64,000 bases of DNA. Origin: Nanobdellota archaeon (GTDB taxonomy: Archaea; Nanobdellota; Nanobdellia; Pacearchaeales; GW2011-AR1). The notes beneath the pieces were generated by a model that was not told the DNA's origin, made no database searches, and worked only from the letters and a program-made list of their open reading frames with translations. Position 1 is the stretch's first letter. The number at the start of each line of letters is the position of its first letter. Position numbers and translations under genes: made by a program. Location of the stretch: positions 51,146 to 115,145 of the forward strand of contig DUKY01000007.1 in the NCBI GenBank assembly GCA_013329055.1. The letters are read 5' to 3'. Shown here piece after piece: positions 1,614 to 57,746 of this stretch.

Positions 1614-4243
1614 ACAATTTTTATTCTAAAACAAAAGAGGAGATATTCAGGGAATTTAATAGTTCTGCAAATGGTTTAAATCAAAAAGAAGTTGATTTCA
1701 AACAGGAAAAATATGGAAAAAATGTTATAAAACAAATTCATAAATTAAGACCTTTGAAGATTTTTTTTGAACAATTTAATTCATTTTTAATTTACATTTT
1801 GATAATCGCAGCGGGAGTTTCATTTTTTATCGGACATTCTACAGATGGCTTTGTGATTTCAGCAATAGTTTTGCTTAATGCATTTATAGGATTTTTCCAG
1901 CAATTAAAGGCAGAAAAAGCGATTGTTAATCTTAGAAAATTAATTATTCCAATTTCAAAAGTTATTAGAAAAAATAAATTAATGGAAATTAATTCTGAGG
2001 ATTTAGTTCCGGGAGATATAATCATCCTTGAAGCAGGAGATAAAATTAACGCTGATTGCAGAATAATTGAATCAGAAAACTTGCAAACTAATGAAGCAAT
2101 ACTTACAGGTGAAAGTTTACCTGTTGATAAATGGGATATTCTTTTAAAAGATTCAACAATTATATCCAGACAAAGCAATATGCTTTTTGCAGGGACTCAA
2201 ATTGTAAGGGGCAATTCAAAAGCGATTGTTGTTGCAACAGGAATAAATACTGTTTTTGGAAATCTTGCAGAAACATTACAGGAGATAGAGATAACTAAAA
2301 CACCTATGCAAAAAAGATTGGATAATTTTTCCAAACAAATTGGGTTCATAATATTATTCGCGGTAAGTGCAATTATTTTAATGGGTTTTATGAAAGAGTT
2401 TGATACTTTAAACATGTTTATGATTGCGGTTGCTTTAGCGGTTTCAGCAATTCCGGAGGGGTTGCCTGCAGTTCTTGCAGTTTCATTTGCAATTTCTTCT
2501 TTATTAATGTCTAAACAAAATGTGATTATTAGAAGGTTGCCTGCAGTTGAAAGTCTTGGAAGTGTTACGATCATTTGTTCAGATAAAACCGGTACAATTA
2601 CCGAAGAAAAAATGGAGATTCGGGAGATTTTTGCAAATAATAATTTCTATATTAAAAACGGAAAAGAGATTTTTTTGAAAGATAAAAAAATAGATATTGA
2701 GAAAAATAAGGAACTTTACCAATTAATTAAAACAAGTCTTTTATGCAATAATGCCAGATTTGAAGAGAATAACGGGGAATATGAAGTAATTGGAGACCCT
2801 ACTGAGGGGGCATTAGTTTTAGCAGGTTTAGATTTGGGATTAAATAAAAAATTATTAATTGACAAAGAGCCAAGTATTCAAAGATTTGAATTTGATTCAA
2901 AGAAAAAGATGATGTCAATTCTTAGGGATAATGGGAGAAATAAAGTTCTTTATTCTAAAGGTGCACCGGAAAAGATTTTACAGATTTCAAGTTTTGAACT
3001 TGTTAATGGACAGATAAAAGAATTGACATTGAAGAGAAGAAAAGAATTATTAAATTCTTCAAGAAAATTGGAAAAAGATGCTTTGAGAGTGTTGGCATTT
3101 GGTTACAAAAATATTCCTGTTAAGAGCAAGGCTAAAGAAGGAAATTTGATCTTTTTAGGATTTGCCGGGATGATTGATCCTCCAAGAAAAGAGGTAAAAA
3201 ATGCGATACAAGAATGCAAGAATGCTGGGATTAAAGTTAAAATGATTACTGGGGACTCAGCATTAACTGCCAAAGCTATTGCAAAAGAAATTGGCATTGA
3301 GGGGGAGATTATTTCAGGAGAGGAGTTAGAGGAGATGAACGATATGACACTTACAAATAGAATTGATAATATTTCTATTTTTGCGAGGATTACTCCTTCT
3401 CAAAAATTAAGGATTACAAAGATTTTGCAACAAAAAGGGGAAGTGGTTGCAATGACTGGCGATGGGGTTAATGATGTTTTGGCGTTGAAATCTGCAGATG
3501 TCGGAATTGCAATGGGAAAAAGGGGTACAGATATTGCACGTGATGCTTCAGATATTGTTTTAGTTAATGATAATTTTGCTTCAATTGTTGAGGGGGTTAA
3601 ACAAGGGAGAAAAACATATGATAACATTAAAAAATTTACGAAATATTTTTTGGCAGTTAATTTTAGTGAAATTTTCTTAATTTTATTTGCGTTAATTATG
3701 GGATTATTTTATGGTCCTGAAAAATGGTTCTTGCCTCTTTTGCCTTTACAAATTTTATGGATTAATTTAATTACAGATTCTTTACCTGCTTTGGCTTTAG
3801 TTTTTGAAAAAGAAGAGAATGTTATGAATACTCCTCCAAGAAAAGAAAAAAGTTTATTAGACGGTATCTGGAAATTTGTGATTCTTGCGGGAATTTTAAC
3901 TTTTGCAATAAAATTAGCAATTTATTTGATTGAAGTCAGCAATACTTTATCAATTGACAGGACAAGAACACTTATTTTAACTACTGCAATTTTCTTTGAA
4001 TTATTTTTTGTTTATTCCTGCAGAACAGAAAGTTCATTATTGAAGAATGGAATTTTTTCAAATAAATGGTTAAATTATGCTGTACTTATATCAATAATAT
4101 TACACCTTATTTTATTGTATAGTCCGTTAGGAATTATATTCGGGGTTATTCCTTTGACTATAAAAGATTGGTTATTTATTTTACCATTTGTAGTTTCCGG
4201 TTTAGTTATTTTTGAAATTGGAAAATTGATTAAGAAGAAATAG
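1610..4243 (+). CDS. P-type cation-transporting ATPase (P2-type, Ca2+/Mg2+-like)
   Basis: It has the phosphorylation motif CSDKTGTIT and the hinge motif MTGDGVNDVLALKSADVGIAMG, with about 10 TM segments. The start overlaps the upstream stop by 4 nt. Confidence 0.85.
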   Translation: MNNFYSKTKEEIFREFNSSANGLNQKEVDFKQEKYGKNVIKQIHKLRPLKIFFEQFNSFLIYILIIAAGVSFFIGHSTDGFVISAIVLLNAFIGFFQQLKAEKAIVNLRKLIIPISKVIRKNKLMEINSEDLVPGDIIILEAGDKINADCRIIESENLQTNEAILTGESLPVDKWDILLKDSTIISRQSNMLFAGTQIVRGNSKAIVVATGINTVFGNLAETLQEIEITKTPMQKRLDNFSKQIGFIILFAVSAIILMGFMKEFDTLNMFMIAVALAVSAIPEGLPAVLAVSFAISSLLMSKQNVIIRRLPAVESLGSVTIICSDKTGTITEEKMEIREIFANNNFYIKNGKEIFLKDKKIDIEKNKELYQLIKTSLLCNNARFEENNGEYEVIGDPTEGALVLAGLDLGLNKKLLIDKEPSIQRFEFDSKKKMMSILRDNGRNKVLYSKGAPEKILQISSFELVNGQIKELTLKRRKELLNSSRKLEKDALRVLAFGYKNIPVKSKAKEGNLIFLGFAGMIDPPRKEVKNAIQECKNAGIKVKMITGDSALTAKAIAKEIGIEGEIISGEELEEMNDMTLTNRIDNISIFARITPSQKLRITKILQQKGEVVAMTGDGVNDVLALKSADVGIAMGKRGTDIARDASDIVLVNDNFASIVEGVKQGRKTYDNIKKFTKYFLAVNFSEIFLILFALIMGLFYGPEKWFLPLLPLQILWINLITDSLPALALVFEKEENVMNTPPRKEKSLLDGIWKFVILAGILTFAIKLAIYLIEVSNTLSIDRTRTLILTTAIFFELFFVYSCRTESSLLKNGIFSNKWLNYAVLISIILHLILLYSPLGIIFGVIPLTIKDWLFILPFVVSGLVIFEIGKLIKKK

Positions 4244-4337
4244 GAGAAAGATCCTTAAATATTGTTAACAATATTATACTCGAAAAGAATTTAAAACCTC
4301 ATTTTTTATAATTCTTAAGAGGTTTCTAAAATTTTAT

Positions 4338-7136
4338 TTGAAAATGAACGATAAAATAAAAATAAAAGGTGCCCGACAGCACAATTTGAAGAATATAAGT
4401 ATTGAATTACCTAGAGATAAATTAATAGTTATTACCGGTTTATCGGGGAGTGGAAAATCCACTCTTGCATTTGACACATTATATGCTGAGGGTCAAAGAC
4501 GATATGTTGAAAGTTTAAGTTCTTATGCTCGGCAATTTTTAGGTTTAATGAGCAAGCCGGATGTTGATTCTATAGAGGGGTTAAGTCCTGCAATTTCTAT
4601 TGAGCAAAAAACTACAAGCAAGAATCCTCGTTCTACTGTCGGAACAGTTACTGAAATTTATGATTATTTAAGGCTACTTTATGCTCGAATTGGAATTCCT
4701 CATTGTCCTATACATAATATTAAAATTGAAGCTCAATCTCCTGAAAAGATTTCTCAAAAAATTGCTGAAGATTTTACAGGACAAATTACTATTTTATCTC
4801 CTATTATTAGACAGCAAAAAGGAACTTACGAACAATTATTTTTAGATTTAAACAAAGAAGGTTATGCAAGAGCAAGAGTAAACGGACATATATTAAGAAC
4901 TGATGAAACAATCAAGCTTGAAAGATACAAAAAACATGATATTGAGGTAATAATTGATCGGTTAGATGTGAAGGATAAATCAAGGCTTGCTGAAGCAGTT
5001 GAAAATGCATTAATTAAATCTAAGGGATTACTAATAGTTGAAAATAATGGAAAGGATAAATTCTATTCAGGAAATATGACTTGCCCTAAGTGTGATATTT
5101 CATTTGAAGAATTGCAACCTAGAATGTTTTCATTTAATTCACCTTTTGGGGCTTGTGAAGGATGCCATGGATTAGGAATTAAAATGATTTTTGATGAAGA
5201 TTTAATTATTCCCGATAAAGAATTAAGTATCATTGACGGGGCAATAAAAATTTATGGAAAAATTGATATGTCTTGGCGTGGACAACAATTGCAGGCAGTT
5301 GGAAAAAAATTTGGTTTTGATATTTATACACCAATAAAAAAATTTAATGAAAAACAAATTCAAACATTATTTTATGGTTCAACTGAAGCAATTAAAGGCA
5401 AATGGGATACAGGGGCAAATATGAATTTTGAAAATGGATGGGAGGGTTTGATTCCTCAATCAGAAAGATTGTATAAATCAACAGATTCAGATTATCGAAG
5501 AAAATTTTTAGAAAAGTTTATGAGAGTGAATAAATGTTCAGTTTGTGACGGAAAAAGATTAAAGCAAAAAATATTAGCGGTTAAGATTAATAATAAATCA
5601 ATAATTGATGTTACAGACTTATCAATACAAGAAGTGATTGTATTTTTTAATAATTTAGAATTAACTAAACAAGAAGAAAAAATTTCAAGGCAGATTTTAA
5701 AAGAAATACGTGAGAGATTAGGATTTTTAGAGAGAGTTGGTTTAGGTTATTTGACATTGTCAAGAAATGCCGGGACATTATCAGGAGGAGAAGGGCAAAG
5801 AATCAGGCTTGCAACACAGATTGGATCAAATTTAACAGGAGTTTTATATATTTTAGATGAACCTTCAATCGGACTTCATCAAAGGGATAATCATAAATTA
5901 ATTGAAACATTACAAAAATTAAGAGACATTGGAAATACTTTGATTGTTGTTGAACATGATGAAGATACGATTATGAATGCTGATTATGTTGTGGATATTG
6001 GTCCTGGTGCAGGAATTCATGGAGGAGAAATTGTTGCAAAAGGTACTCCTCAAGAAATTATTAAAAATAAAAATTCTTTAACAGGACAATATTTATCAGG
6101 AGTTCAATTTATCGAAGTTCCTAAAATTCGACGAGAAAAGGGTGAACCAATTAAAATTGTTGGATGCACAGAAAATAACTTAAAAAATATTGATGTTGAA
6201 ATTCCTACAAGAATTTTAACTTGTGTTACGGGAGTATCTGGTTCAGGAAAATCTACATTAATTAATGAAATTTTATATAAAGGAATGATGAAAAAAATTC
6301 ATCAATCAAATATTAAAGCAGGAGAGCATAAAGGGATTTATACAGAAGCTTATATTGATAAAGTAATTGTTATTGACCAATCCCCAATTGGCAAGACTCC
6401 TAGGAGTAACCCTGCAACTTATATTGGAGTTTTTGATGAAATCCGAAAAGTTTTCGCGAGTACTAAAGAAGCTAAAATGAAGGGATATAAATTAGGAAGA
6501 TTTAGTTTTAATGTTCCTGGTGGAAGATGCGAAAAGTGCAGTGGAGATGGGACAATTAAAATTGAGATGAATTTTTTACCTGATGTTTACATTGAATGTG
6601 AAGAATGCAAAGGCAAAAGATATAATTCTGAAACATTGGAAATAAAATATAAAGATAAATCTATTGCAGAAGTTTTGGATATGAGTGTTGAGGAAGCTTT
6701 GGATTTTTTCAAATTTATTCCATCTATTAAAAATAAATTAGAAACATTAAATCAGGTGGGTTTAGGTTATATTAAATTAGGGCAAAGTTCAACAACTTTA
6801 TCAGGGGGTGAAAGCCAGAGAATAAAATTGACAAAAGAATTATCTAAACGTGGAACAGGACAGACATTATATTTACTTGATGAACCTACAACAGGGTTAC
6901 ATTTTCATGATACAAGAAAATTAATTGGGGTACTAAATAACTTAGTAGATAAAGGGAATACGATTATAGTAATTGAGCATAATTTAGATGTTATTAAATG
7001 TGCAGATCACATAATTGATTTAGGTCCTGAAGGAGGAGACGGGGGAGGATACATTGTCGCAACTGGAACTCCAGAAGAAATTGTTAAGGATAAAATAAGT
7101 TATACGGGCAAATATTTAAAGCCTTTACTTAAATGA
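4338..7136 (+). CDS. uvrA: Excinuclease ABC subunit A
   Basis: Two ABC ATPase modules ([18 protein letters not shown]), Zn-finger Cys pairs and LSGGE signature motifs are present. Confidence 0.95.
7090..7134. repeat. 45-bp direct repeat, copy 1 (covers the last 14 codons of uvrA)
   Basis: Perfect match to 8594-8638: ataaaataagttatacgggcaaatatttaaagcctttacttaaat. Confidence 0.9.
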
Positions 7137-7506
7137 TATCTATTCTAAATATTTTAATATAATATTAATTTTAAATCCTTTAATTCGTTGCTTCTCTTAT
7201 TTAATCTTTTATAAATATCTCTAAAATTGTTTTTGGGCTTTTTCTACAACTGACTTTCTAATTTAATCATACAAATAATAGTTAGTTGTCAGGAGATAAG
7301 TCTCTGAATTAGTTTTATTTGATTCTCTCCGATTTTTCATTCATATTGGGTAGTATCTGAAGCACACACACAGTACTAAAGAATACCTCAGACAAGAGAA
7401 ATGATGTCAATATTTTTTAATTGTCATAACTCATCAGTATCTTCGAGAACTTGGAGATACTGCTAATAAGAATAAGTTTTTAAATATTTAATCATTCTCT
7501 TCGATA

Positions 7507-8562
7507 ATGGAAGAAGAAAATACCACAAAAATAAATGTTTTAAGCATAATTTTCAAAATCACTTATTTTATTGCTTTAATAGGACTTTTATATTTTTATT
7601 TCTTTGATATAGGAAGAAATATTTCAATGATTAATGGAGATTTAATTAATTTTAAAGAATTTATTATTATGTTACCATTATTAATTATCCCATTATTAAT
7701 TCCAGTTAAAGAACTAAAATATAAATTATTATCTTTTATAGGATTGGCAATTATATTAACAACAATCGGAATAATTTGGATTCATTATGGGGAATGGGGT
7801 GATTTGATTTTTTATATATATGCTCTTGTAATTTTAATAATAATAATAATAAGCCATTATTTATTAAGATATGTTGATACAAAAGCAAATAAATTGGTGA
7901 AAATTATGGGAGTTATTATATTACTAATAATATTAATCTCTTATACAGCCTATTTTATATCTTCAAAAGCATACTTTCAAGATTATTTAAAGATAAGTGA
8001 ATCAAATGACAGATTAATTAATGAGATAAAATGTAAAGGTGCTTATACAACAACAGACTCTTTAGAATTAAAAAATCTTTGTGACCAAATAGAATATGTT
8101 CCACATGAAACTACTCACATTCATATGGTGCATTCAAATGAAGCATGGAGAGAATTCAAAGCATATTGTGAAGAAGTTGTTAAAAAGGTTCAAATAGATA
8201 AATATTATTTTGATGAATATGGTAATGCAGGGTATTTTTTTATAAGAAATCCCTCTTTATTTGATACTAATTGTAACCCTGAACAACCAAGACCCGAAAT
8301 ATTAGACCCTTATTTGTGTGATGTACTAGCAAAATCAAACTCAAAAATATTACAAGAATATTTTGATAATCCAAAGAGAACAGGTCCTGATTGTTATGAA
8401 AGAGTTGTTGCTGAAACGGGGCAAATAGAACTTTGTGAGAAATCATCAAGTCCTCAGTCATGTTATTTATATGTAGCTAAAGTAAGAGATGATAAAAGAA
8501 TATGTGATGAATTAATAAGATATCCGCTTGTAAGAGAAACTTGTTTAGATAATTTTAATTAA
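7507..8562 (+). CDS. Membrane protein with ~5 N-terminal TM helices and a C-terminal Cys-rich extracytoplasmic domain, function unknown
   Basis: Hydrophobic N-terminal half, then about 190 aa containing 10 or more Cys. It lies inside the segment flanked by the 45-bp direct repeats. Confidence 0.55.
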   Translation: MEEENTTKINVLSIIFKITYFIALIGLLYFYFFDIGRNISMINGDLINFKEFIIMLPLLIIPLLIPVKELKYKLLSFIGLAIILTTIGIIWIHYGEWGDLIFYIYALVILIIIIISHYLLRYVDTKANKLVKIMGVIILLIILISYTAYFISSKAYFQDYLKISESNDRLINEIKCKGAYTTTDSLELKNLCDQIEYVPHETTHIHMVHSNEAWREFKAYCEEVVKKVQIDKYYFDEYGNAGYFFIRNPSLFDTNCNPEQPRPEILDPYLCDVLAKSNSKILQEYFDNPKRTGPDCYERVVAETGQIELCEKSSSPQSCYLYVAKVRDDKRICDELIRYPLVRETCLDNFN

Positions 8563-8593
8563 TTCTAATGAATTTTGTAAAATGATAAAAAAA

Positions 8594-8638
8594 ATAAAAT
8601 AAGTTATACGGGCAAATATTTAAAGCCTTTACTTAAAT
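8594..8638. repeat. 45-bp direct repeat, copy 2 (retains a uvrA 3'-end coding fragment)
   Basis: Identical to 7090-7134. It overlaps the stop of the minus-strand gene 8633..9409. Confidence 0.9.
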
Positions 8639-9409
8639 AGAATTTATTTTTACACTAATAGGATTTTTAAAAACTTCTTCAAAATAAGTTTCAATATCTC
8701 CCATATATTCATCAAACCACTTTTCTTTTTTACCAAAATTTTCTTTTATTGAATGCAAATTTTGATAATTATCAGGAAATAAATCTGCCCCCCATCTCCA
8801 ATCAGTTTTGTATTCCCAGTTATTATGTTCAACAACAAAAATATTATTTCTGGGACGTTTAATATTTTTATCCCACCCCCACAATTGATTAGAGGTTGGA
8901 TCAGCAATGATAAAACCTTTTTTATCGTGCAATAAAAAAGGAAATGCAGTATAGCAATGATCATCATAAGAATCTAATAATACTGATGCATTTGCATATC
9001 CAATAGACATTCCTGCAAACATGACATTTTGTGCTGAAGGACAACATTCTGCATGGGGAAATGAAGAATTACTTTTTTTTCCAAGTATATAATGATGAAA
9101 CATTAAGTCATAGATAAAATCAATATGCCCCATAAGTTCTTTTTGATTATCAATTTTCATTGAACAAAATTCAGGAACATCCTTATGAATCTCTAAAAGA
9201 TATTTCATTTTTGACCCCCAAGTTTTGTCATCATATGCAATTAATCTATTTTTTGTAGGATCAATATTTTGAATATCAGATTGATATCTTAATGAATTTA
9301 GTTCAATTCCATATTTTTCATTTAAATCTTTTTCATAAGCATATGTGAAAATTGAAAAAGGGTTTATCGATTGACAATCTATATTTGATGCATCATTTAA
9401 ATTTTTCAT
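8633..9409 (-). CDS. Hypothetical protein with a Cys/His/Asp triad spaced as in arylamine N-acetyltransferase/transglutaminase-like folds (paralog 1)
   Basis: Candidate triad residues sit in ECCPSAQN, HCYTAFPF and IIADPTSNQLW. It is about 45% identical by eye to the adjacent ORF 9435..10196. Confidence 0.5.
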   Translation of the reverse strand: MKNLNDASNIDCQSINPFSIFTYAYEKDLNEKYGIELNSLRYQSDIQNIDPTKNRLIAYDDKTWGSKMKYLLEIHKDVPEFCSMKIDNQKELMGHIDFIYDLMFHHYILGKKSNSSFPHAECCPSAQNVMFAGMSIGYANASVLLDSYDDHCYTAFPFLLHDKKGFIIADPTSNQLWGWDKNIKRPRNNIFVVEHNNWEYKTDWRWGADLFPDNYQNLHSIKENFGKKEKWFDEYMGDIETYFEEVFKNPISVKINSI

Positions 9410-9434
9410 AATTCTTTATTTAAGGAATAGATTT

Positions 9435-10196
9435 TTATTCTTTTTGGTTATGCCTAATTTTTATCGAATGCTTAAAAACTTCTTCGAAATAAGTTTCAAT
9501 ATCATAAAAATAAATTCTTAAAGCATCTTTATTCCTTTTAAAAGAATCTAAATTTAGATAGCAATTTGGATAAAGATTATCATCTCCAAATTCATTACCT
9601 TTTTCATAATCCGTTTGATATTCCCAGTTATTATGTTTTACCACAAAAATATGATTTCGTGGAGGAATTATTTCCAGGCATTTCCAAAGTTGATTAGATG
9701 TTGGATCAGCAATAATAAAACCCTTGTCATTTTTTAATACAAAAGGAAATGCTGTATAACAATGATTATCTGTTTGATCGCATAAAACAGAAGCATTTGG
9801 ATAACCAGAAAGCATACTCGCAATCATAATATTATGTGCTGAAGGAGCACATTCATTAGTTGGAAAAACGTTGCTTCGTTTTTTTCCTAAAATATAATGA
9901 TGAAACATTAAATCATAGATAAAATCTATATGTTTCATTAATTCTTCTTCTTTATCTAATTTCATAGAACAAAAACCCTCGATATTTGGATACAGTTCTA
10001 AAATCGTTTTAATTTTACGTCTATTTTTTATATAACCATATTGCAAATTTCCTTCTTTAAAAATATCGATATGGTTTACATTAGAATTGTTATTAACTTT
10101 CTTTAATTCAATTCCATATTTTTCATTTAAACTTTTTTCATAAGCATTAGTCCAGATAGAAAAAGGTTGAATTTCTGCAAAATTTTCAAGTTTCAT
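9435..10196 (-). CDS. Paralog 2 of the NAT/transglutaminase-like Cys-His-Asp protein
   Basis: Blocks shared with 8633..9409: NECAPSAHN, HCYTAFPF, GFIIADPTSNQLW, IDFIYDLMFHHYILGKK. Confidence 0.5.
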   Translation of the reverse strand: MKLENFAEIQPFSIWTNAYEKSLNEKYGIELKKVNNNSNVNHIDIFKEGNLQYGYIKNRRKIKTILELYPNIEGFCSMKLDKEEELMKHIDFIYDLMFHHYILGKKRSNVFPTNECAPSAHNIMIASMLSGYPNASVLCDQTDNHCYTAFPFVLKNDKGFIIADPTSNQLWKCLEIIPPRNHIFVVKHNNWEYQTDYEKGNEFGDDNLYPNCYLNLDSFKRNKDALRIYFYDIETYFEEVFKHSIKIRHNQKE

Positions 10197-10356
10197 TCAA
10201 TCATAATTAGGGGTTATTTTATAAAATTATTTAAAAAATAGATTAATTCTGCGATTATAATCAGTGCTAAGATTTTTAAAGAGCTATCTTGTCGTCTTTT
10301 ATAAGTAACTAACATGAAATAATTAATCTTATTAATCTCAAAAACATGGGATATTT

Positions 10357-23220: not shown

Positions 23221-23503
23221 AACCGCCAAGCCCCTGAAAGAAGATATGATTTAAATCATATTATAAACCACTGATAGGAATAGTGGACATTATTTATTTT
23301 TTTATTTAATTCCTTAAAATTTTATAAAATCCCGACGGGATTTTCCTCATAACCCATGAAAGCTTCTTTAAATTCACCCTCAAAAGTTATTCGTTCATTT
23401 ATTCGAACTTTCAGAGTTACTCGCCCGCAACTTTTAAAGTTTTTTGAATCTACTCAGATTAAACCCTTGAAATAAATATATACCTTTCTGTTTGTATATA
23501 TTA

Positions 23504-23599
23504 TGACCCCGACGGGAGTTGAACCCGCGACACCCAGATATCTCCATTGATAATTAAATCTAAGAGTCTGGTGCTCTAACCAGGCTGAGCTACGGAGCC
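23504..23599 (-). tRNA. tRNA-Lys (anticodon CUU) with a ~21-nt intron at the canonical 37/38 position
   Basis: Manual fold: acceptor GGCUCCG/CGGGGUC, D arm GCUC-AGCCUGGUUA-GAGC, anticodon stem CCAGA/UCUGG with loop CUCUUAA interrupted by GAUUUAAUUAUCAAUGGAGAU. T arm GCGGG-UUCAACU-CCCGU, discriminator A. Confidence 0.75.
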
Positions 23600-24030
23600 A
23601 TAGTAAAACATTAGTGATTTACTTTAAAAATATGTTGATTTACGTTAGCACCAGACGTAACTGGGGACGTTGAAAATTTGCCAAAAAGAAATTTTTAACA
23701 ATCAGAGAATTAAATTACAATTCTCTGAATCTAACCAGGCTGAAGCTACTGCAGCCATAGTAAAACATTAGTGATTTACTTTAAAAATATGTTGATTTAC
23801 GTTAGCACCAGATGTAAAGAGTCTGGAGACGTTGAAAATTTGCCAAAAAGAAATTTTTAACGATCAGAGAATTAAATTACAATTCTCTGAGTCTAACCAG
23901 GCTGAAGCTACTGCAGCCATAGTAAAACATTATTGATTTACTTTGGCACCAGACGTAAAGAGTCTGGGGACGTTGAAAATTTTGTAAAAAGAAATTTTTA
24001 ACGATCAGAGAATAGATTGATTGAAAATTT
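23600..24030. repeat. Tandem array upstream of tRNA-Lys: about 2.7 units of ~160 bp, each carrying a promoter-like segment, a 27-nt degenerate copy of the tRNA 5' end and a 10-bp-stem hairpin
   Basis: Repeated gcagccat (complement of the tRNA 5' end GGCUGCAG…) at ~23751-23758 and 23911-23918. Repeated cagagaattaaattacaattctctg hairpin. Confidence 0.8.
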
Positions 24031-29329: not shown

Positions 29330-29485
29330 ATTATATTAAAATAATCATATTATTTAAATCTTTTTTGCCGAAAGGAATTTTTATTCTTTTTATGATTTGC
29401 AAAAGGATTATTACTGGGAAATAAATAATTAGGGATAATATAACAGTGTTCTACTCCAAAATTTGCTTTTTTTCTAAAACCCTAA

Positions 29486-29496
29486 CTTTTAAAAAT
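29486..29496 (+). promoter_or_regulatory. Duplicated copy of the tRNA-His promoter-like A/T box upstream of the tRNA-His pseudo-copy
   Basis: ttttaaaaatc lies ~30 nt upstream of the GGCGG start. The whole ~75 bp upstream segment is duplicated at 29440-29525 and 29740-29805. Confidence 0.3.
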
Positions 29497-29525
29497 CTCA
29501 TAATTTATCTATAAACATTCATAAT

Positions 29526-29736
29526 GGCGGTTGTGGTATACAGAAATTAAAAATTTCTGTCCCTACAGGATTAAACTGTGCCTTCGCACAGAAAGATATT
29601 AAAAATCCTGAAGGTACAGAGATTAAAAATTCTGTCCTACAGGATTAAACTGTGCCTTCGCACAGAAAAATATTAAAAATCCTGCAGGTAACGGTTATTA
29701 CATACGGTTGGGGTCAGAGCAAAGAGGGTTCGACTC
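29526..29736 (+). pseudogene. Truncated/disrupted tRNA-His copy: 5' 15 nt, then a 150-bp hairpin-dimer insertion, then a mutated anticodon/T region, with no 3' acceptor strand
   Basis: GGCGGTTGTGGTATA | 29541-29690 insertion | ACGGTTATTACATACGGTTGGGGTCAGAGCAAAGAGGGTTCGACTC, then the duplicated promoter region. Confidence 0.55.
29541..29690. repeat. Tandem dimer (76 + 74 bp) of a cruciform-like hairpin module inserted in the D-loop of the tRNA-His pseudo-copy
   Basis: Each unit has cagaaattaaaaatttctg and caggatt…ctgtgccttcgcacag…aatcctg hairpins and ends in ggta. Confidence 0.8.
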
Positions 29737-29766
29737 AAAAATTCGCTTTTTTTCTAAAACCTTAAC

Positions 29767-29778
29767 TTTTAAAAATCT
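29767..29778 (+). promoter_or_regulatory. Candidate archaeal TATA-like box for tRNA-His
   Basis: cttttaaaaatc lies about 28-40 nt upstream of the tRNA start at 29806. Confidence 0.3.
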
Positions 29779-29805
29779 CATAATTTATCTATAAACATCA
29801 ATAAT

Positions 29806-29878
29806 GGCGGTTGTGGTATAACGGTTATTACGTCCGGTTGTGGTCCGGGCAAAGAGGGTTCGACTCCCTCCATCCGCT
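29806..29878 (+). tRNA. tRNA-His (anticodon GUG) with an encoded G-1
   Basis: Manual fold: G-1, acceptor GCGGUUG/CAUCCGC (one U·U), D arm GUAU-AACGGUUA-UUAC, anticodon stem UCCGG/CCGGG with loop UUGUGGU. T arm GAGGG-UUCGACU-CCCUC. Confidence 0.75.
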
Positions 29879-30352
29879 TAATAAATCAGAGACGAACCCT
29901 GGGTTCGATGAAAAATTTTGTGGTAGAAACTTATTCTTTCAGATAAAAATTCAAGCATTGAATAAAAGAGTTTCGTGCAAGATTTTGAACATCCCTCCAT
30001 CCGCTTATTTTCTTTACAGAAAATTGCGTAAGTTCGGGAGTCTTCGACTCCACAATTCGCATTCCGTGAAAGCTTCTTTAAATCAAGGAAAATTTTGATT
30101 TATTTGAACTTTCAGAAATGCTCAATTCGCATTCCGTGAAAGCTTCTTTAAATCAAGGAAAATTTTGATTTATTTGAACTTTCAGAAATGCTCACCATCC
30201 GTTTAATAAATAAGAGGCGAACCCCGGAGTTCGATGAAAAATTTTGTGGTAGAAACTTATTTTTTCAGATAAAAATTCAAGGATTGAACAAAAGAGTTTC
30301 GTGCAAGATTTTTAACATCCCTCCATCCGCGTTTTATTTTTAAGAAAGATTT
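29879..30352. repeat. Array of 3-4 modules downstream of tRNA-His, each bounded by a copy of the tRNA 3'-terminal 12 nt (CCCTCCATCCGC)
   Basis: 3'-end copies at 30003-30014, 30195-30201 (partial) and 30319-30330. Modules 29879-30002 and 30202-30318 are ~90% identical. The middle module has a tandem ~82-bp duplication (30046-30189). Confidence 0.8.
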
Positions 30353-57128: not shown

Positions 57129-57685
57129 TCACTACTTACAGAGAATCAAAGATTCTCTGAAACACAAAATCTATACTGTGCCTACGCACAGATCAGAAGT
57201 ACAGATTTTGTTGTGTCCTAAAAAATTTCTAAAGAAATTTTTGGGAATTCAGAGATTGAAAATCTCTGGAACTTCAGGGAACCTGAAGTCTTCAAAAGGC
57301 GTTACTTTTGAAGTAATCTAACCCTTGGGTTATATTCACTTCAAAATATACTTGTTTTGAAGTCCCAGAGAATTTGAAAAATTCTCTGAGCCTCCTTAAT
57401 GGGTACGGAGGTACAGAGAATCAAAGATTCTCTGAAACACAAAATCTATACTGTGCCTACGCACAGATCAGAATTACAGATTTTGTTGTGTCCTAAAAAA
57501 TTTCTAAAGAAATTTTTGGGAATTCAGAGATTGAAAATCTCTGGAACTTCAGGGAACCTGAAGTCTTCAAAAGGCGTTACTTTTGAAGTAATCTAACCCT
57601 TGGGTTATATTCACTTCAAAATATACTTGTTTTGAAGTCCCAGAGAATTTGAAAAATTCTCTGAGCCTCCTTAATGGGTACGGAG
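57129..57685. repeat. Two tandem ~285-bp units, each a string of ~9 short hairpins, each ending in a copy of the tRNA-Trp 3' end
   Basis: Unit period 57129 to 57414. Hairpins include cagagaatcaaagattctctg, ctgtgcctacgcacag, cagagattgaaaatctctg, cttcagggaacctgaag. Terminal ccttaatgggtacggag occurs at 57394-57410 and 57669-57685. Confidence 0.85.
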
Positions 57686-57746
57686 GGAATCTAACCCCCG
57701 TCTGCCGGGCTGGAGCCGACCATAATAAACATTATACTACGCACCC
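57675..57746 (-). tRNA. Candidate tRNA-Trp (anticodon CCA) with atypical D- and T-loops
   Basis: Manual fold: acceptor GGGUGCG/CGUACCC, anticodon stem GUCGG/CCGGC with loop CUCCAGC, T arm GGGGG-UUAGAUU-CCCUC. D-loop AAUGUUUA lacks GG and T-loop lacks C56. Confidence 0.5.

Follow-up and report, generated by a model that had tools for sequence, protein, structure and literature searches.

How did a single gene come to lie between uvrA and the gene that converges on it, flanked by two copies of the uvrA 3′ end and with both neighbours intact? We addressed this question in a 64,000-nucleotide stretch from a Nanobdellota archaeon (contig DUKY01000007.1 of GenBank assembly GCA_013329055.1, positions 51,146 to 115,145; hereafter the window, to which positions refer unless a contig is named). 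A 1.46-kb segment comprising a leader, one gene and a spacer has been inserted at the 3′ end of uvrA, the target has been duplicated, and a related lineage carries the empty site with a single copy of the repeat. We regard the insert as an accessory gene that is old, inherited stably and variable between strains of a recombining, Pacearchaeota-like DPANN population from groundwater, and we detected no sign of its current mobility. As to its origin, we favour, with modest confidence, an integrase-independent duplicative insertion over a decayed integrase-type element.

An insertion between overlapping convergent genes

The locus comprises the following features.

4338 to 7136, plus strand: uvrA, 932 amino acids (aa) from a TTG at 4338 in the list of open reading frames (ORFs), with the stop TGA at 7134–7136; gene callers start it at ATG 4344 (930 aa), and the called product carries UvrA Pfam domains
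7090 to 7144, plus strand: repeat copy 1, 45 bp exact and 10 bp partly conserved, the functional 3′ end of uvrA
7145 to 7506, plus strand: insert leader, 362 bp, non-coding
7507 to 8562, plus strand: cargo gene, 351 aa
8563 to 8593, plus strand: 3′ spacer of the insert, 31 bp, reaching the junction with copy 2
8594 to 8648, plus strand: repeat copy 2, the displaced uvrA 3′ end with an in-frame TAG
8633 to 9409, minus strand: 258-aa gene, convergent with uvrA, with its stop (8633–8635) inside copy 2

The 45 bp at 7090–7134 recur exactly at 8594–8638, and the similarity runs on to 55 bp at 93% identity (7090–7144 versus 8594–8648). No third copy with up to 12 mismatches occurs on either strand of the window. 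A chance origin of the repeat is ruled out, as the longest exact direct repeat in 30 simulated 64-kb Markov-1 sequences, with the same dinucleotide make-up as the window, measured 17–22 bp. The repeat contains two nucleotides of an Asp codon, the last 14 codons of uvrA and the T of the stop codon, which is completed as TGA in copy 1 (7134–7136) and as an in-frame TAG in copy 2 (8638–8640). The last six nucleotides of copy 2, together with the bases that follow, form the C-terminus and stop of the minus-strand 258-aa gene, and copy 2 is therefore not merely a dead uvrA fragment.

The arrangement recurs across many independent assemblies, which rules out an assembly artefact. In the assembly collection, 75 indexed blocks contain the exact 351-aa protein, and all 24 contigs carrying it that we read (from ENA, JGI, NCBI and Logan assemblies) show the same order of uvrA, insert and repeats. 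The NCBI assembly GCA_013331835.1 is identical to the window, and contigs retrieved through the 258-aa protein, including GCA_000805965.1 and a run labelled groundwater metagenome, agree on the arrangement. Contigs that break at the repeat (L016 and L017) were not counted as evidence of heterogeneity, as the breaks are likely an assembly k-mer effect.

The UvrA variants form one group at 98–100% identity, the next relatives reaching only 79%; the nearest named homologues of the source UvrA belong to Candidatus Pacearchaeota (78% identity). G+C content is ~20–35% over the region, and the window holds one intron-containing tRNA. We assigned the contigs to lineage A (the window, L002, L003, L006, L008, L013, L014 and L018, with L015 as a variant), lineage B (L001, L004, L005, L007 and L009), lineage C (L021, with UvrA variant P0015 at 98%, and L033) and lineage D (L022 and L023). 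Lineages A, B and D carry the insert; lineage C does not. In L003 and L014 (JGI 3300025013), uvrA is called as two overlapping ORFs of 709 and 232 aa, which indicates a frameshift, either genuine (a pseudogene variant) or due to a sequencing error.

In lineage C, both L021 and the independent 180-kb JGI contig L033 read ...CCTTTACTTAAATAATATCTATTTTTACATTAATAGG, in which a single repeat copy leads straight into what in the window is the DNA after copy 2. The uvrA end of L021 reads ...CCTTTACTTAAATAATATCTATTTTTACATTAATAGGATTTTTAAAAAC and runs directly into that DNA, and L033 (99.9% identical to L021) has the same junction. In this state, uvrA and the 258-aa gene converge and their 3′ ends overlap by a few bases. 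An insertion between such overlapping genes would truncate one of them unless the overlap were duplicated, and the repeat supplies exactly this duplication. The single-copy empty site thus identifies the repeat as an insertion scar. Of two metagenome scans for the repeat, the first returned nothing and the second returned lineage C only, and the relatives at 79% UvrA identity and the relatives of the 258-aa gene lack the synteny needed for an outgroup to polarize the change.

We propose a single, not very recent insertion of the 1.46-kb segment where the 3′ ends of uvrA (plus strand) and the 258-aa gene (minus strand) overlap. The segment would have brought the membrane-protein gene together with its own 362-bp upstream region, and the event would have duplicated ~45–55 bp of the target, leaving uvrA complete through copy 1 and the 258-aa gene complete through copy 2.

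Much of this agrees with an earlier note on the window, which had described the perfect 45-bp repeat, a single gene between its copies (7507–8562 is indeed the sole ORF), an insertion into the 3′ end of uvrA that keeps the gene intact (uvrA is full-length with its own stop), the lack of an integrase in the cassette (none was found by Pfam, ORF or six-frame search) and an empty site to be expected in relatives, as now seen in lineage C. The same note described the repeat as 14 codons plus TAA, which is corrected here, the two stops being TGA and TAG with only the T shared. It also called the downstream genes NAT-like, a label without support: the 258-aa gene and its tandem paralogue (9435–10196, 253 aa, ~56% identical) match no Pfam, PHROG or PADLOC family. 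These paralogues have only eight relatives (90%-identity clusters) among 5.8 billion proteins, and they diverge fastest in the region (5–11% between lineages).

Repeat alleles and mosaic divergence

The two copies of the repeat are identical in lineage A and differ within the other insert-bearing genomes (numbers are positions in the 45-bp repeat).

Lineage A: copy 1 A5 A8 G17 A29; copy 2 identical
L015: copy 1 T17 G29; copy 2 G17 A29
Lineages B and D: copy 1 A5 A8 T17 G29; copy 2 G5 G8 T17 G29
Lineage C: single copy, T17 G29 plus T20

The copies thus mismatch at 2 of 45 positions in lineages B and D (positions 5 and 8) and at 2 of 45 in L015 (positions 17 and 29), and are therefore old and occasionally homogenised rather than fresh att sites. 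Over 6.4 kb (3801–10231), L015 differs from the window only at 7106 and 7118, both changes being synonymous in uvrA, and lineages B, C and D differ from the window at the same two positions. One short recombination event therefore parts the window from L015: either copy 2 converted copy 1 in the line of the window, or a B-like tract was imported into L015. The perfect identity of the repeats in the window is a recent homogenisation. We suggest that short-tract recombination keeps them alike, whether one copy converts the other or tracts are exchanged with further uvrA alleles.

Divergence around the insert is uneven. With L015 as the reference for lineage A, the differences from B are at 6977, 6992 and 7010, then only at 8130 until 8598, beyond which they are dense (8598, 8601, 8610, 8622, 8655 and onward). 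The insert is accordingly 99.93% identical between lineages (one single-nucleotide difference in ~1.5 kb, at 8130), whereas its flanks are 4–11% apart: uvrA is ~4–5% diverged between A and B, with 94 of the 106 differences at third codon positions, and the downstream genes are 5–11% diverged. Upstream of 4600 the two lineages are near-identical again, and mosaicism is broad in the population. On the right, the conserved block ends (8597) within 4 bp of the junction between insert and copy 2; its left edge is at 7011, ~80 bp upstream of copy 1, with L015 as the reference, and inside copy 1, at 7119, with the window as the reference.

The four differences between A and B within copy 2 (8598, 8601, 8610 and 8622) all fall at third codon positions of the uvrA frame (K/K, I/M, T/T and L/L), which has a probability of ~0.012 by chance. 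As copy 2 is unconstrained where it now sits, these alleles must have arisen in uvrA genes that were functional. Most simply, the segment would have been inserted once and its flanks later exchanged with cassette-less alleles by homologous recombination, with occasional conversion between the copies; such an exchange must halt at the insert because homology halts there. Much the same pattern could result if site-specific insertion had occurred repeatedly, in different hosts.

Parallel insertions and the route of integration

Seven indels distinguish the lineages in the uvrA region, and the three that touch gene ends all carry long duplications. The other four lie in intergenic spacers without long repeats (a ParE/antitoxin pair, an APH gene, the 136-aa gene at site X and a 144-aa gene). 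In lineage C (L021 10797–11602; L033 5281–6075), a 136-aa gene is flanked by a 99–110-bp duplication (94–98% identical) of the 3′ end of the neighbouring 252-aa gene. This cassette is 93% identical to a donor segment at site X of lineage B (L001 12723–13327), and in lineages B and D the same cassette occupies a different site without repeats. Its junctions share 5 bp each with the target (TTGAA and TAATA). The donor and the microhomology together indicate that it was copied from a chromosomal locus and was not brought by an att-bearing element.

The third gene-end indel, just upstream of uvrA in L021 (7848–8024), is an insert of ~125 bp with the hairpin CTGTGCCTACGCACAG, a motif found four times in the window where 0.01 occurrences would be expected. 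The insert stands between perfect 21-bp copies of the uvrA start (AAAATGAATGACAAAATAAAA). More distant Pacearchaeota hold comparable scars. In L024 (5433–5931), a Pacearchaeote with 79% UvrA identity, a 131-aa gene lies between perfect 28-bp repeats formed by the last eight codons and stop of a 48-aa ORF adjoining tRNA-Trp. In L011 (9593–9745) and L028 (7677–7823), a 53-bp G-rich insert lies between two copies of the final 44–50 bp of rad50, of which the first ends in TGA and the second in TAG, as at uvrA. In L011, 43 bp separate the duplication from a downstream homologue of the 351-aa gene; this homologue was called from 10001 but truly starts at 9788.

Duplications of 21, 28, 44–50, 45–55 and 99–110 bp are thus found at five different gene ends, and inspection revealed no terminal motif shared among the insertions. 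The varied lengths and targets and the want of a common motif argue for a general illegitimate process filtered by selection rather than for one integrase. Purifying selection could account for the pattern if gene-end insertions survive only when they carry the duplication. For the 351-aa insert, we propose an integrase-independent, illegitimate duplication of the microhomology type, as for the 136-aa cassette of lineage C. A broader claim, which we consider unlikely, is that single-gene cassettes are recurrently added at gene ends in Pacearchaeota-like DPANN without an integrase, duplicating 20–110 bp of target and thereby sparing genes that overlap or are closely packed; the 351-aa insert, the 136-aa cassette, the 131-aa cassette of L024 and the rad50-end duplication of L011 would all be products of this one process.

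Searches for a mobile element returned nothing. The insert holds no integrase, transposase or pseudogene trace (its only ORF encodes the 351-aa protein, and leader fragments have no Pfam match), and it has no terminal inverted repeats, the best match between its ends being a 24-nucleotide A/T-rich pair at 71%. No recombinase was detected among the ten uncharacterised window proteins scanned, no second locus was found for the 351-aa cassette, and none of the loci retrieved contains a full-length element at the uvrA site. A viral or plasmid origin found no support, as the viral contigs scanned contain no relative of the 351-aa protein, no attP-like copy of the repeat and no copy of the leader, and the protein has no PHROG match, although their absence from these collections is not proof. 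Simple single-crossover Campbell integration, worked through by hand, was set aside, since the repeat alleles of lineage A need an added conversion step.

Transposons and casposons duplicate a short target stretch of constant length (2–15 bp; ~14–15 bp for casposons) and carry terminal inverted repeats and a transposase or Cas1. The direct repeats flanking our insert are likewise copies of the target, but they are 45–55 bp long and come with neither terminal inverted repeats nor a transposase or Cas1 gene. DDE transposons, insertion sequences and miniature inverted-repeat transposable elements fail as explanations on the inverted repeats and on the 45–55-bp duplication; a casposon fails on the lack of a Cas1-type gene and of inverted repeats and on a duplication three times too long. 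The insert resembles an integron cassette in being a promoter-proximal single-gene unit without its own recombinase, but it has no attC-like palindrome, array or nearby intI, and its repeats are target-derived. This candidate was rejected as 8563–8593 contains no palindromic site and no integrase occurs among the neighbouring or scanned window proteins.

Illegitimate insertions are usually described as rare accidents, whereas several cluster at gene ends here. The locus is like illegitimate microhomology-mediated insertions in that there is no recombinase and no terminal motif and in that the duplication length varies by event (21, 28, 44–55 and ~100 bp). A donor and 5-bp junction microhomology are known for the sister 136-aa cassette and not for the 351-aa insert, at whose right junction a GATAAAA match is only suggestive as microhomology.

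Integrase-type elements share with the locus a repeat that duplicates the 3′ end of the target gene and leaves it intact with its own stop, a repeat length within the range of crenarchaeal att sites (29–69 bp, median 45, as quoted in a review of archaeal integrated elements; PMC6563490) and a single-copy empty site in a close relative (L021 and L033). Cis-mobilizable elements (CIMEs) keep attL and attR and have lost their integration genes (PMC5704250); our insert likewise has no integration genes and keeps both flanking repeats, which are candidate att sites only. Unlike either, it holds just one gene. It further differs from both in that no integrase-bearing relative, attP or other hallmark gene was found, in that repeat differences between strains track the host flanks, and in its sister events with other targets and other repeat lengths. 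Judged as an integrated element, the locus shows the repeat and the empty site and lacks the integrase.

A decayed, non-autonomous CIME-like remnant is the main rival reading, which we rate clearly below integrase-independent insertion. An integrase-carrying plasmid or virus would have integrated through an attP of ~45–55 bp mimicking the uvrA end, and internal deletions would have left one cargo gene, attL and attR. The geometry is classic, as the repeat spans the 3′ end and stop of a gene and the displaced original end lies at the far junction, and the single-copy empty site fits. L015, B and D share one form of copy 1, whereas their copy 2 changes along with the downstream flank, as expected if the element supplied copy 1. 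A repeat as long as an archaeal att site, the location of 14 of 68 thaumarchaeal elements in 3′-distal parts of protein genes (PMC6563490), the established CIME concept (PMC5704250) and a nearby tRNA-His gene with displaced 3′-end fragments point the same way. What speaks against such a remnant, besides the absence of an integrase or integrase fragment from the insert and of an integrase from the ten scanned proteins, of attP-like, leader or homologous sequence from viral contigs and of a full-length relative among the loci retrieved, is that the block conserved between L015 and B begins ~80 bp upstream of copy 1 and not at a crossover within the repeat, and that duplications of 21–110 bp occur at other targets in the same lineages, one of them with a chromosomal donor. 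Several points in turn weigh against our preference for integrase-independent insertion: (i) a donor with junction microhomology supports this route for the sister 136-aa cassette and not for the 351-aa insert itself; (ii) identity over 45–55 bp at a gene end is the trace that integrase-type elements leave, given the crenarchaeal att lengths cited above (PMC6563490); (iii) the tRNA-linked duplications in this genome may be integrase scars; (iv) a sharp right edge of the conserved block is also expected if a discrete unit moved between lineages; and (v) lineage C may have lost the insert by recombination between the repeats rather than never had it. The earlier note had seen the signature of site-specific integration, which our searches for an integrase remnant, an attP-like copy, a viral homologue or a second locus do not bear out. 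Copy 1 may have been supplied by the element, as the note proposes, or have been duplicated from the host. The other gene-end duplications of varied length point to an integrase-independent route. The note had also named relatives with diverged repeats, indicating an ancient fixed duplication, as grounds against its reading, and the two mismatches per 45 bp in B, D and L015 partly supply them.

Two further readings concern the history of the insert, and we give both little weight. It is very unlikely that the insert is a non-autonomous cassette still being passed whole from strain to strain, with ~45 bp of target duplicated at each insertion by a site-specific mechanism acting in trans. Such transfer would account for lineage-specific alleles in both copies (G17/A29 in both copies of A, T17/G29 in both copies of B and D) and for the near-identity of the insert between diverged flanks, but L015 breaks the pattern, with T17/G29 in copy 1 and G17/A29 in copy 2, copy 2 of B and D also differs from copy 1 at positions 5 and 8, and the cassette was found at a single locus only. 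Recombination with cassette-less alleles, halted at the boundary of heterology, gives the same pattern, and we know of no enzyme that makes target duplications of 45–55 bp. The least probable reading is that the order uvrA, 351-aa gene and partial uvrA end is ancestral for the species and that recombination between the repeats deleted the gene in lineage C, whose empty site would be the product. A pair of direct repeats with 1.5 kb between them lends itself to deletion, and the junction in lineage C (AAATAATATCTATT followed by TTTACA) could arise through a crossover within the final 4 nucleotides of the 55-bp similarity, with one substitution besides. That a crossover should be restricted to so short a part of the 55 bp is unlikely, however, and the duplicated uvrA fragment is a derived feature, so that an insertion is needed at some point in any case; synteny is gone at the next relatives (79% UvrA), which leaves no outgroup. 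Integrase-independent duplicative insertion thus remains the origin that we favour.

Cargo gene, tRNA-linked repeats and biological meaning

The model of the 351-aa protein predicts five N-terminal transmembrane helices followed by a Cys-rich, all-helical C-terminal domain. Ten Cys residues are invariant in the family, whose conserved motifs include SHYLLRY, CKGAYTTT and DKYYFD. The protein matches no Pfam or PHROG family and hits PADLOC only once, marginally (E = 0.01). Searches of 5.8 billion and 1.84 billion proteins yielded 6 relatives and 21 representatives, respectively, and a relative at 31% was found in only one species-representative genome. The cargo therefore belongs to a very rare family of unknown function. 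Homologues adjoin uvrA here and rad50 in another genome, which may be coincidence. The closest homologue (P0004, 46–49% identity) lies at L010 9215–10001, among a weak DDE-transposase-like gene, a ParE toxin gene, and NYN and SLFN/AlbA genes, and a transposase-like C-terminal remnant was seen by eye within the 290 bp upstream of it. This context suggests that the family travels in variable regions.

The leader contains no ORF longer than 31 aa, and its six-frame fragments have no Pfam match at E up to 1. Searched as non-coding RNA, the leader and repeats have no Rfam match even at E = 1. The leader folds somewhat better than shuffled sequences (RNA z-score −3.1), with a 12-bp-stem hairpin at 7436–7463. 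An A/T-rich, TATA-like stretch at ~7477–7489, just upstream of the cargo ATG, is a putative promoter.

Repeats also accompany tRNA genes elsewhere in the window. At the tRNA-His locus (29442–30351, gene at 29806–29879), a second, imperfect version of the promoter and both tRNA halves lies ahead of the gene, split by two tandem 74-nucleotide units that each carry the hairpin CTGTGCCTTCGCACAG; 3′ of the gene lie several fragments resembling tRNA 3′ ends (CCCTCCATCCGC) as well as 70-bp and ~130-bp repeats. The locus looks like stacked integration scars or intron-like inserts. A 275-bp unit in tandem duplicate (57137–57686, 99.6–100% identical) abuts tRNA-Trp (57675–57746, minus strand) and contains about ten consecutive short hairpins, including CTGTGCCTACGCACAG, with no Rfam match at the gathering score. 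Three tandem units of ~160 bp (23596–24013, 88–100% identical) adjoin the intron-containing tRNA (23503–23600, minus strand) and repeat its first few bases and its upstream region.

The locus is a clean natural case of a compact archaeal genome gaining an accessory gene between overlapping convergent genes with damage to neither, and it reveals a 45-bp repeat that short-tract recombination has edited within a very short time. This type of scar is already known, and its recurrence in this archaeal group adds some interest. If small insertions that duplicate gene ends prove to be systematic in DPANN, they would suggest that these organisms, in which few mobile elements are known, gain genes by a route so far unrecognised.

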